Positions 1,141-4,285 of a stretch of DNA of 4,285 nucleotides are shown here, piece by piece. The DNA comes from a plasmid. The stretch lies in the NCBI RefSeq assembly GCF_057098645.1, contig NZ_JBXSPU010000005.1. One strand, given 5' to 3'. Made by a program: the position numbers and the translations under genes. Each line of letters starts with the position of its first letter. Position 1 is the first letter of the stretch. Under the pieces are notes generated by a model. That model worked only from the letters and a program-made list of their open reading frames with translations, was not told the origin of the DNA and ran no database searches.

Positions 1141-1407
1141 CTACGGTTTCGCAGGTGGTTTGGGTAGCTTCTCCAGCTCGTTAATCAGCGGTTGTATCCG
1201 GTTCACATCGGCCTGTCTTGTGACTTCCTTTCGCAGGAACTGGAGCAGGAACGCACGCAGTTGCGCCTCTTCCGGCCTCCGTACCCTCGCCAGCATGGCA
1301 GCCCCCACAATGACTTTTTGCGCCGTGTCCAGGCTCCGGCTCTTCGCCTTCAGGCGCTGCAATCTGGCCTCAGTTTCGGCAATCTTCTGTTCGAGTGTTC
1401 TGCTCAT
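1141..1407 (-). CDS. mobC: Mobilization accessory protein MobC (RSF1010 MobC-like)
   Basis: 88-codon ORF on the minus strand with ATG at complement of 1405-1407 and stop at complement of 1141-1143. GGAG Shine-Dalgarno at complement of 1415-1418 with a 7-nt spacer. An N-terminal coiled-coil-like segment (LEQKIAETEARLQRLKAKSR) is followed by DTAQKVIVGAAMLARV, matching the conserved core of RSF1010 MobC as I recall it (ETRRKVLVGAMILAKV). It is divergent from mobA with an oriT-like sequence between them, as in RSF1010. Confidence 0.8.
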   Translation of the reverse strand: MSRTLEQKIAETEARLQRLKAKSRSLDTAQKVIVGAAMLARVRRPEEAQLRAFLLQFLRKEVTRQADVNRIQPLINELEKLPKPPAKP

Positions 1408-1491: not shown

Positions 1492-1546
1492 TCACGAAGT
1501 GCGCACTTATACAATCTTCACTTCGTTTCGATTGTGTGCGCCCTGC
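1492..1546 (+). other. Candidate origin of transfer (oriT) with MOBQ/RSF1010-like nic region
   Basis: Inverted repeat ACGAAGTG (1494-1501) / CACTTCGT (1521-1528), which includes the 12-bp palindrome AAGTGCGCACTT (1496-1507). It is followed 7 nt later by GTGCGCCCT (1536-1544), matching the RSF1010/R1162 nic sequence TAAGTGCG|CCCT as I recall it. Predicted nick between 1540 and 1541 on the plus strand. The position between divergent mobC and mobA fits IncQ-type mob modules. Confidence 0.5.
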
Positions 1547-1585
1547 GGGGCTGAAAGAAAACGGCAAAAAGGCATTACGGCAGAA

Positions 1586-3805
1586 ATGGCGATTTATCAT
1601 CTCAGCATGAAAATCATTTCGCGAAAAAACGGCTACAGTGCCGTTGCTTCTGCTGCCTACCGTTCCGGCTCTGTCATACCCGATGACCGTACCGGATTAA
1701 TCCACGATTACACCCGTAAACGCGGCGTTGATGATGCGGTCATTCTCACCCCTGCGAATGCACCGTCCTGGTGTGGTGACCGTTCCGTTCTCTGGAATGC
1801 GGTCGAGAAAGCCGAACAGCGCCGGAACTCCCAGCTGGCAAGGGAGATTGAACTCGCCATTCCCCGTGAGATTTCCCGCGAGGCCGCACGGGAGGCCGTT
1901 CTCGCTTTTGTCCGGGAAAACTTTGTCAGTCGGGGCATGATTGCCGATGTGGCGTTCCATCATATGGACCGGACCAACCCCCATGCACACATCATGCTGA
2001 CCACGAGAGCTGTCGGGGAAACGGGATTCGCAGGAAAGGTCAGGGACTGGAACGACCGGGCACTCGCCGAGACGTGGCGCGCATCATGGGCTGACCATGC
2101 GAACAGAGCGCTTGCGAACGCCGGCTACCAGGAAGAGATAGACCATCGTTCATACGAGCGTCAGGGACTGGAGAAAGCGCCGGGCCTTCACCTCGGAAAG
2201 GCTGCCTGTGCGATGGAAAAACGGGGCATGGAAACAGAACGCGGTGAGCAGAACCGCCTGATTAACAGCCTTAACCTGGAAATACAGGTTTCCCGCACAA
2301 GGCTGGCAGTCATCCAGGTACAGGAGAACGTGCGGAAACGGGAACTCAGCGATGCCGCACGTCGTGCAGCGGAAGCCCTTAATCTGACCATTCCCGCCGC
2401 GAATGCCTCAGCGGATACCCTGCGGGAATTCATTGCCACACTGCCGCAGGAATGCGGGAACGCATGGGAGATGACACCGGAGTTCGTGGCGATGAACGGG
2501 AAGGCAAACGACATCAAACGTGAGGGGAATGCGCTGGTGAAAGAGCGGGATATTCTCGAAAAAGAGATGACCGGACTCAGAAAAGCCCGTCCGGTAGCGT
2601 CCATCCTGTCAGAGCTTCCCCTGATGACATGGGCTGAACCGGAATACCGCAAAAGACAACTCCGCTTCTGGAAACTCGAGAAACAGATTGAATCTCTTCT
2701 CCGCACCTACAGGGCCGTGAAAGAACGGGACATTCCCGTCCGTCGTCAGGCCTTTGAAACGCAGTGGAATACGTGGATTTCGCCGGGAATGGCAGAGCTG
2801 AAAGAAAAACTGTCAGCACGGGAAGCGGAGCGGCGCAGGGAGGAAGCCGAAGCGGAAGCGCGCCGGAAGGAACAGGAATATGACGCACGGCTGAAACACC
2901 ATGATAACCATCGCCTGAGCCGAGAAACGGCATTAGCCGGGGTTATTACGGAGCTGGGGCGTGCCAGAGAGCCGGGAACGGGCAGGATAACCCGCTACAT
3001 GATGCTGAGTAACAGAGCCGGAGAATTCACGGTATGGGGTGATGAGCTGGCGCATTACCCCCAGAGTGTTCATGACCCGGTGAATGTTTACCTGTCGCCA
3101 GGCGGGGCTGTGATGGTCTCGGATATACGTGAGGGAATGCCAGAATCTCATGAGACGATGGCGCGGCCTGAGCGTGTGAGAATGTATTCCGGTGCGACGG
3201 TCCGGCATGTACTGGAACAGATGCGCCAGGGGTGGCCCTCTTACGGTTTTCCGGCGCTGCCGCATCACTGGCCGGATAATTTTTATTTCAGCGACGACCG
3301 CAGGCCCGCAGCCTCTCCGCTGCCGTCAGCGCACCGGGTGGACGTCACCGCTTATGCGGCACCGGAGCAACTCATGCCCGTTGTCTTTTCGACAGAGCGA
3401 AACAGCAGGACGCTGAATCTGCTGTTGTGCGAAGGGCCGGAGGAAATGCTTGTCGGTTTTGTGCGCCTGGAGGACGAGCTGCGTCCCGTTCTTGCGCTTC
3501 CGTCGCCGGATTACAGTCATCTGATGGTAAGCATCATCACAGAGAACGGGATACACCTGGCAGGCTACGGTGAGGCCATAAACCGTGATGCTGATACTCC
3601 GTACCCACCGGAACCGAAGCTGATGCAGTTCAGGCTTAAGGGCTGTCAGGACACGCTTTTTGCTGCCATCAACAAACCGGAAGAGATGCCGGATTATCTC
3701 TTCCGTCAACTCGGATTTAATCAGACCTGGCATGAATGGAAGCGGGACGAACAGCACAGGCAACAACAACGACGCCCCGGACATTACCGGGGCATGAGTA
3801 TGTGA
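1586..3805 (+). CDS. mobA: Mobilization relaxase MobA (MobA/MobL family, MOBQ), with a long C-terminal region of unrecognised function
   Basis: Frame is open from GTG 1499 to TGA 3803-3805. I place the start at ATG 1586 because the product then begins MAIYHLSMKIISR, the canonical N-terminus of MOBQ relaxases (RSF1010 MobA begins MAIYHLTAKTGSR). Catalytic Tyr25 is at codon 1658-1660 and the histidine-triad motif HHMDRTNPHAHIM at residues 125-137 (about 1958-1996). WADHANRALANAGYQEEIDHRSYERQG also matches RSF1010 MobA (WADHANRALERAGHDARIDHRTLEAQG). No strong Shine-Dalgarno precedes 1586, so the start is not exact. Residues from about 240 to 740 have no motif I recognise. Confidence 0.9.
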   Translation: MAIYHLSMKIISRKNGYSAVASAAYRSGSVIPDDRTGLIHDYTRKRGVDDAVILTPANAPSWCGDRSVLWNAVEKAEQRRNSQLAREIELAIPREISREAAREAVLAFVRENFVSRGMIADVAFHHMDRTNPHAHIMLTTRAVGETGFAGKVRDWNDRALAETWRASWADHANRALANAGYQEEIDHRSYERQGLEKAPGLHLGKAACAMEKRGMETERGEQNRLINSLNLEIQVSRTRLAVIQVQENVRKRELSDAARRAAEALNLTIPAANASADTLREFIATLPQECGNAWEMTPEFVAMNGKANDIKREGNALVKERDILEKEMTGLRKARPVASILSELPLMTWAEPEYRKRQLRFWKLEKQIESLLRTYRAVKERDIPVRRQAFETQWNTWISPGMAELKEKLSAREAERRREEAEAEARRKEQEYDARLKHHDNHRLSRETALAGVITELGRAREPGTGRITRYMMLSNRAGEFTVWGDELAHYPQSVHDPVNVYLSPGGAVMVSDIREGMPESHETMARPERVRMYSGATVRHVLEQMRQGWPSYGFPALPHHWPDNFYFSDDRRPAASPLPSAHRVDVTAYAAPEQLMPVVFSTERNSRTLNLLLCEGPEEMLVGFVRLEDELRPVLALPSPDYSHLMVSIITENGIHLAGYGEAINRDADTPYPPEPKLMQFRLKGCQDTLFAAINKPEEMPDYLFRQLGFNQTWHEWKRDEQHRQQQRRPGHYRGMSM

Positions 3806-3837
3806 TATCCGGGGCTGCACCCCGAACCCCGCCAACG

Positions 3838-3880
3838 TCTCACGGGACACGAAAAAATTCCGCGTCCCGTGAGGCGTTTT
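3838..3880 (+). terminator. Candidate intrinsic terminator of mobA
   Basis: Inverted repeat CTCACGGGAC (3839-3848) / GTCCCGTGAG (3864-3873) with a 15-nt loop, followed by GCGTTTT (3874-3880), 34 nt after the mobA stop. The long loop is atypical. A smaller hairpin CGGGG(CTGCA)CCCCG sits at 3810-3824. Confidence 0.5.
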
Positions 3881-3951
3881 CTGGATGAGAAAGTTTGCCG
3901 TTTTGACCCGTTCGCGCTTCTGAACGGTCGAAACCGATCGCGCATCGCTTT

Positions 3952-3969
3952 CGTGAATAGTTATGCAGA
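3952..3969. promoter_or_regulatory. ARG-box-like element (candidate ArgR accessory site of the cer-like site)
   Basis: cgTGAATagttATGCAga compared with the ARG box consensus tnTGAATwwwwATTCAnw: TGAAT is exact and ATGCA differs from ATTCA at one position. Its centre lies about 120 bp upstream of the Xer core centre, similar to the ArgR site spacing in cer-type sites. Confidence 0.4.
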
Positions 3970-4068
3970 CCCCTGAAAACGATTCTGACGCGTTTTTCTG
4001 GTTTGGCCTGGTGTTTTCTTGTCTTTTTGTGTTTTTTGCGTCAGAACGCGTCTGAGAGCGTTTTAAGG

Positions 4069-4096
4069 GGTACGTACAACAGGAGTTATGGTAAAT
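4069..4096 (+). other. cer-like Xer site-specific recombination core (XerC arm, 6-bp central region, XerD arm) for plasmid multimer resolution
   Basis: GGTACGTACAA (4069-4079), CAGGAG (4080-4085), TTATGGTAAAT (4086-4096). The right arm is identical, and the left arm has one mismatch, to the ColE1 cer arms as I recall them (GGTGCGTACAA / TTATGGTAAAT). The central region is 6 bp (cer has 8; psi and dif have 6). About 170 bp of upstream sequence is available as accessory region. Confidence 0.7.
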
Positions 4097-4268
4097 GGAT
4101 CGGGTTTTGGGGAATAATCGACAGGGTTTGCCGTTGGGTGTAGTGTAAGCGACTGAAAAACAAACGCCCCGTAAATCGTGCTCTCACCGCCAAGATTGAT
4201 CACGAAATTACAGGGCGCCGGGTTCCGCGTCTCCCGATGGGAAAGCGCGGTTAGTTAAACTGTGTACC

Positions 4269-4285
4269 GAGAGGAATCGTAACAC
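4269..4285 (+). promoter_or_regulatory. Shine-Dalgarno-like element positioned for rep if the window is a circular replicon
   Basis: GAGAGGAA at 4269-4276 lies 9 nt before the end of the window, and the rep ATG is window position 1. If 4285 joins 1, this is a ribosome-binding site with a spacer of about 9-10 nt. The window length is also plasmid-sized. Circularity is not provable from the sequence alone. Confidence 0.3.

Follow-up and report, generated by a model that had tools for sequence, protein, structure and literature searches.

A probable multimer-resolution site of the ColE2/ColE3 lineage, with cer-type arms and a 6-bp central region, on a small colicin-less plasmid

Does a plasmid site that joins the recombinase-binding arms of cer to a central region of 6 bp, in place of the 8 bp of cer itself, resolve multimers in the manner of cer or in that of psi? 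The question is raised by a locus near the right end of a 4285-bp stretch of DNA (the window), which is the whole of a small plasmid numbered from the ATG of rep. Here, the original prediction had placed a cer-like multimer-resolution site and proposed, on account of the short central region, that it may behave more like psi than like cer.

The window is 98.6% identical to pColE8 (NC_012882.1) over 99% of its length and 98.3% identical to pDETEC85, a colicin-less plasmid of 4296 bp typed Col156/MOBQ. Judged by its sequence, it is a complete colicin-less ColE2-type (Col156/MOBQ4) plasmid, and the identity to pColE8 and pDETEC85 places it among the ColE2-like 'MOBQ42' plasmids, of which Garcillan-Barcia et al. 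2019 (PMC6856555) give a description. Alignment with most of its colicin-bearing relatives (ColE2 and ColE9 types) ends at about 4213-4215, and the final ~70 bp ahead of the rep ATG (4214-4285) differ in most relatives of these types. It is at this place that ColE2-type plasmids carry their antisense-RNA (IncA) control region, which is known to be variable. Between the stop codon of the relaxase gene (3805) and the accessory sequences of the site is a hairpin (3834-3878, with arms of 21 nt, then UUUUCUGG), the minimum free energy of which (-41.4 kcal/mol, z = -5.2) was equalled by 0 of 200 shuffles, although a simple terminator scan missed it; the hairpin probably serves mobA, the relaxase gene, as its terminator and, as such, would protect the Xer site against read-through transcription. 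The genes of the plasmid and the parts of the site are as follows.

1-915: ColE2-type Rep
1141-1407, minus strand: small mobilization protein
1499-3805 (ORF): MobQ relaxase
about 3885-4068 (~185 bp), plus strand: accessory sequences on the XerC side of the core, presumed by homology to be the PepA/ArgR wrapping region
3954-3967, plus strand: ARG box (predicted ArgR site), TGAATAGTTATGCA, matching TGAATWWWWATTCA at 12 of 14 positions
4069-4079, plus strand: XerC-binding arm (by homology), GGTACGTACAA, matching the cer arm GGTGCGTACAA at 10 of 11 positions
4080-4085, plus strand: central region, CAGGAG, 6 bp, read directly; predicted place of strand exchange
4086-4096, plus strand: XerD-binding arm (by homology), TTATGGTAAAT, identical to cer at 11 of 11 positions

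To locate the core, the whole window was searched for the cer arms separated by a 6-nt spacer (GGTGCGTACAA-N6-TTATGGTAAAT), with 200 dinucleotide-preserving shuffles as control. The pattern was matched once, with a single mismatch, at 4069-4096 on the plus strand, and in none of the shuffles (0/200). The 28-bp core reads GGTACGTACAA / CAGGAG / TTATGGTAAAT, as compared with GGTGCGTACAA / TTAAGGGA / TTATGGTAAAT in ColE1 cer (NC_001371), where the central region is 8 bp, and these readings agree with the original prediction that the arms are nearly identical to those of cer and that the central region is shorter by two. The one difference from cer in the XerC arm, G4 to A, could lower the affinity for XerC; the same arm, GGTACGTACAA, is common to the experimentally tested site of pRS218 and to 8 of 11 relatives described below. 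The XerD arm, which also has a single match in the window, is the same in 15 of 15 related loci and in the reference plasmid sites other than psi (TTATGTTAAAC), and the G at its position 6 is of the cer type, not of the psi/dif type.

Homology among the 11 related plasmids starts at about 3885-3901 and continues to the core, with unrelated flanks upstream. The predicted span of 3900-4100 was therefore nearly right, the core ending at 4096 and the conserved block calling for a small extension to the left. An ARG-box-like sequence had been placed about 120 bp upstream of the core, and the box that we find there starts 115 bp from the XerC arm, vs. 113 bp in ColE1 and 112-116 bp in 19 published sites. 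Nothing else in the window matches TGAATWWWWATTCA with up to 2 mismatches allowed. The box lines up with those indicated for ColE1, ColA, ColE3, CloDF13 and NTP16, and its fit to the consensus exceeds that of cer's own ARG box (11/14). The left half of the box (3954-3958) is TGAAT, the consensus, in the window and in ColE3-CA38, and TGCAT in 11 of 11 close relatives and in most other cer-like sites. For the ArcA-P site (consensus GTTAATTAAATGTTA), the window had no match at up to 3 mismatches, the equivalent position being occupied by the ARG box. Five T-tracts of at least 4 nt were found on one strand between 3993 and 4064, their ~10-11 bp periodicity being matched by 150 of 2000 shuffles; the phasing that would point to an intrinsic bend between ARG box and core is weak and falls short of significance. 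We also considered the idea that a shorter central region is offset by a longer spacing between ARG box and XerC arm, keeping the distance from ARG box to XerD arm constant. It seemed true in 16 sequences and was dropped once the 19 literature sites gave ranges of 112-116 bp (ARG-XerC) and 129-133 bp (ARG-XerD) with no clear trend.

At the junction of XerC arm and central region (4075-4080), the window reads TACAAC where ColE1 cer has TACAAT, a -10-like hexamer. Pcer is located centrally within cer. Its spacer is given as 15 bp in one open literature source. A promoter/terminator consensus scan detected neither element in 3780-4285, nor in ColE1 cer itself, and therefore has no bearing on a Pcer equivalent; an Rfam scan with a permissive cutoff, covering the entire window, returned no Rcd-like family, the only hit being a chance snoRNA match at 3324-3379.

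To place the site among known Xer sites, as the original prediction had proposed, we took the reference cores and accessory sequences from Supplementary File 1 of Fournes et al. 2025 (NAR, PMC11724359) and aligned them with window 3943-4096. Over 154-156 columns, ColE3-CA38 was the closest (92% identity), followed by NTP16 nmr (66%), ColA and mwr (61% each), ColE1 cer (55%) and CloDF13 parB, the lowest at 52%. With ColE3-CA38, which is counted among the 'xrs previously characterized' in that work, the window shares an accessory sequence 92% identical over 154 positions, the ARG box (TGAATAGTTATGCAG), an identical XerD arm, a G-rich central region of 6 bp and the same place upstream of a ColE2-type rep gene; ColE3-CA38 differs in its XerC arm (GGTGCGTACAA vs. 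GGTACGTACAA) and in its central region (CGGGAG vs. CAGGAG). ColE1 cer resembles the window in its arms (10/11 for XerC, 11/11 for XerD), in its ARG-box distance (113 vs. 115) and in overall architecture, but has the 8-bp TTAAGGGA as its central region and an accessory sequence that is only ~55% identical. Like the window, mwr (pJHCMW1), ColA and CloDF13 parB are of the ArgR/PepA type and carry the XerD arm TTATGGTAAAT next to purine-rich central regions of 6 bp (CAGATG, CGGATG and GGGATG, respectively), whereas their XerC arms are more degenerate (GGTGCACGCAA, GGTGCCGACAA and GGTACCGATAA) and their accessory sequences are 52-61% identical; the XerC arm of CloDF13 parB, like that of the window, has A at position 4. 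With pSC101 psi, the window shares a central region of 6 bp, but psi has ArcA instead of ArgR, the XerD arm TTATGTTAAAC and GATCCA as its central region.

Of the features that define each type, three of those of cer-like ArgR/PepA sites are found in the window: the core arms, ~180 bp of homologous accessory sequence and the ARG-box distance. The 8-bp TTAAGGGA that marks ColE1 cer in the strict sense is replaced by CAGGAG; the 6-bp centre of psi-type sites is present, while the dif/psi-type XerD arm (TTATGTTAAAY) and an ArcA box are absent; and the core has an ArgR-type accessory flank, which a 28-bp site of the dif type would lack. Given the arms, the ARG box and the 92% identity to ColE3-CA38, the assignment to a cer-like multimer-resolution site holds, the site being of the ArgR/PepA type. 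We put at roughly 0.9 the probability that it serves a small multicopy ColE2-type plasmid as its multimer-resolution site and belongs to the ColE2/ColE3 lineage of cer-like sites.

The original prediction also implied that a 6-bp centre is unusual, a point that the literature does not bear out. Six of the eight reference sites in PMC11724359 have 6 bp (dif, ColA, ColE3, mwr, CloDF13 and psi), against 7 bp in NTP16 and 8 bp in ColE1 alone; in the catalogue of unique sites of the same study, there are 13 30-mers (8-bp centre) and about 27 29-mers, the others among the entries listed being 28-mers, and the window's exact 28-bp core is already included. A central region of 6 bp is the commonest state of plasmid Xer sites, with the 8 bp of cer as the outlier, and it was the comparison to cer alone that made an ordinary centre seem special. 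According to Fournes et al. 2025 (PMC11724359), accessory sequences can govern recombination at sites of 28, 29 and 30 bp alike. Reports of a cer-like site on ColE2-type plasmids go back to 1994, as relayed in PMC6856555, and XerCD-type resolution sites are described as frequent among ColE2-like plasmids in PMC2831885, where the same 1994 paper is cited. The ColE3 match, the catalogued core and the 1994 report together indicate that the class has been known for three decades and that the allele of the window is already catalogued. As an observation on the centres themselves, the listed central regions of 7 and 8 bp start with T, though the catalogue has a 7-bp variant, ACAGGAG, and those of 6 bp that follow cer-type arms start with C or G.

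In PLSDB, 1844 records have a region similar to the 231-bp region of the window, 420 of them typed as conjugative, and 34 records match the 41-mer surrounding the core at 99% identity or more. Among 5426 complete E. coli genomes, 85 contain a close copy of 3940-4100, with best matches mostly of at least 90% identity; all 98 places in these E. coli genomes are on plasmids (0 on the chromosome), and the listed matches are without annotation. An identical 41-mer occurs in NZ_CP046340.1 (PLSDB, H114), a record of 3898 bp attributed to Burkholderia multivorans. Such a host is surprising for a Col156 plasmid of enterobacteria and may reflect contamination or mislabelling.

Conservation was followed in 11 relatives (L002-L012) in which the 231-bp region is 85-92% identical to the window. 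As the original prediction had required, the arms are conserved among these plasmids: the XerD arm is invariant and the XerC arm nearly so, being GGTACGTACAA, GGGGCGTACAA or GGGGCGCACAA. In every one of them the centre spans 6 bp (CAGGAG, CGGGAG or GAGGAG), and the ARG box, with TGCAT as its left half, and its distance to the core are kept. The combination of an invariant XerD arm, a near-invariant XerC arm, a variable centre and unrelated upstream flanks fits function, and is what one expects of a functional Xer site that forms one module with the downstream rep control region. The central region is CGGGAA in pColE8, and it is polymorphic inside modules that are otherwise very similar (the window, L002-L012 and L016); mismatched central regions would impede recombination between co-resident relatives. 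In small plasmids of E. albertii, E. coli and E. fergusonii (L013, L014 and L015), the region is 73-77% identical to the window while the core reproduces that of ColE1 cer exactly, including its 8-bp TTAAGGGA, and in at least one of them a ColE1-type exc2 gene is located to the right. These three look like natural hybrid sites, as might be expected from Xer recombination between differing cer-like sites.

The closest relative with a recombination phenotype is the site of pRS218, which reads GGTACGTACAA CGGGAG TTATGGTAAAT and has an ArgR-type accessory sequence (PMC11724359). Its recombination, as scored in Table 1 of that study, was + in the wild type, - in the xerC mutant, + in the ftsK mutant and +/- in the pepA mutant; in the same pepA background, pSC101 psi was intermediate like pRS218, whereas ColE1 cer and pIGRW12, the latter with a 6-bp centre, gave no product. 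For sequence comparison we used pUTI89 in place of pRS218 (CP007150), a substitution justified by the nearly equal position of the site in Fournes et al. (19970 vs. 19971) and plasmid length (114230 vs. 114231 bp). The pUTI89 site is 88% identical to window 3880-4110 (231 bp), with both arms identical. The pRS218 site thus resembles that of the window in its arms and in the type of accessory sequence; it differs by one base in the central region (CGGGAG), in the ARG box (TGCAT vs. TGAAT) and in its host, a 114-kb IncF plasmid. From these published experiments with so similar a site, the window site would likewise be expected to depend on XerC, to be independent of FtsK and to depend in part on PepA, and by the same analogy with the pepA result its need for accessory factors may be looser than that of cer. 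The ColE2-type Xer module is embedded in 114-kb IncF virulence plasmids of the pUTI89/pRS218 type, as seen in pUTI89 (17500-22500, L018) and NZ_CP070042.1 (L019). It has an immunity gene of the colicin E1 family on one side and, on the other, a truncated rep pseudogene of ColE2 type, beyond which come genes for ChaN, TonB and a TonB-dependent receptor. There it looks like the captured remnant of a small colicin plasmid.

The anatomy of the sequence, its homology to characterized sites, the pattern of conservation and the restriction to plasmids are established by the comparisons above. Recombination at cer-like sites requires XerC, XerD, PepA and ArgR and is confined to direct repeats on a single molecule. 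In the cer-like mechanism, as outlined in a preprint (Provan et al. 2026), PepA and ArgR interwrap the accessory sequences about three times on a negatively supercoiled dimer. For the window site, we infer from this an ArgR requirement, a wrapping geometry, an order of strand exchange and a junction fate of the following kind. On a plasmid dimer, the directly repeated accessory sequences (~3885-4068) would wrap around PepA hexamers and around an ArgR hexamer seated on the ARG box at 3954-3967, trapping three negative supercoil crossings. This wrapping would align the two 28-bp cores, with host XerC bound at 4069-4079 and XerD at 4086-4096. At the border of CAGGAG, XerC would then carry out the first strand exchange and so yield a Holliday junction. 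The junction would be converted to two monomers by one of two routes, processing without Xer, as at cer and mwr, or a second exchange catalysed by XerD, as at psi. Xer-independent processing seems somewhat more likely than an exchange completed by XerD.

How far, then, does the site resemble psi? Under a psi-like chemistry, the 6-bp centre would allow XerC and then XerD to exchange strands, Xer alone would generate catenated monomers and the dependence on accessory factors would be looser than at cer. The length of the centre, shared with psi and dif, speaks for it. Widening of the spacer from 6 to 8 bp is said to have imposed a need for accessory factors (Blakely and Sherratt, 1996), and a cer/parB hybrid in which cer arms flank a centre of 6 bp was reportedly no longer dependent on ArgR and PepA (Summers, 1989); since the core of the window has the same combination of cer-type arms and 6-bp centre, we count the hybrid in favor of psi-like behavior. 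The intermediate pepA phenotype of the near-identical pRS218 site, which follows the pattern of pSC101 psi rather than that of ColE1 cer or pIGRW12, lends it further support. However, at mwr, with 6 bp (CAGATG), the same XerD arm and ArgR/PepA control, the reaction in vitro goes no further than Holliday junctions, as at cer (PMC2699498), and pIGRW12, also with 6 bp, is fully PepA-dependent (PMC11724359). Moreover, the XerD arm of the window is TTATGGTAAAT, the cer type, and not the TTATGTTAAAC of psi, and the window has an ARG box where psi-type control would call for an ArcA box. The cer-type G at position 6 of the XerD arm is viewed as weakening synapsis (Miele et al. 2022, PMC9226527). As mwr and pIGRW12, both with 6 bp, behave like cer, we conclude that spacer length alone predicts neither the requirement for accessory factors nor the fate of the junction. 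The evidence on a site more like psi than cer is mixed: the partial PepA dependence of pRS218 is on its side, length by itself does not decide the matter, and the ARG box and the XerD arm point to cer; we consider psi-like chemistry possible but on the unlikely side.

The ColE2/ColE3-lineage assignment also has to be weighed against two explanations that would take away either the role of the accessory sequences or the activity of the site. If the core were a dif-like 28-bp site activated by FtsK, the similarity of its flank would be irrelevant, but the XerC arm is flanked by conserved accessory sequence that contains an ARG box, the plasmid is multicopy and only 4.3 kb in size whereas sites without accessory sequences are almost confined to large replicons (PMC11724359), and the pRS218 homologue recombines normally in an ftsK mutant; together, these three points lead us to exclude a dif-like site for practical purposes. 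A decayed, non-functional relic, kept only by linkage to the rep control region immediately downstream, has a precedent in some Yersinia pPCP-family plasmids, where an ArgR-type accessory sequence is located beside a seemingly inactive site (PMC11724359), and the stretch downstream of the core (4097-4160) is indeed conserved too. Both arms, however, are equal to or one base from those of functional sites, the XerD arm is invariant even though the accessory sequences of relatives differ by up to 28% from that of the window, and the homologue differing by one core base (pRS218) is active. Near-consensus arms, conservation and an active one-base variant make decay highly improbable. We thus return to a multimer-resolution site of the ColE2/ColE3 lineage, which by its sequence appears to be real and functional, and is already known.

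A more speculative thought concerns the family as a whole. Near-optimal cer-type arms joined to a 6-bp centre are the combination that relaxes accessory dependence in engineered cer derivatives, and for this reason ColE2-family sites might be naturally 'leaky', that is, partly independent of PepA and ArgR, with exchange completed by XerD and with intermolecular recombination. We regard this as doubtful. If true, such leakiness could contribute to the mosaicism of ColE2-type plasmids, to hybrid sites of the p1303_5 type and to the capture of a ColE2 module by the IncF plasmids pUTI89 and pRS218.

The finding itself has little importance beyond annotation. The PLSDB and RefSeq matches listed do not have the site annotated, and plasmid annotation would thus gain from a label for it. 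For the plasmid, the site would account for the escape of a 4.3-kb multicopy replicon from the 'dimer catastrophe', and the pairing of cer-type arms with a 6-bp centre would make it a handy natural substrate for finding out which factors other than spacer length determine Xer selectivity.
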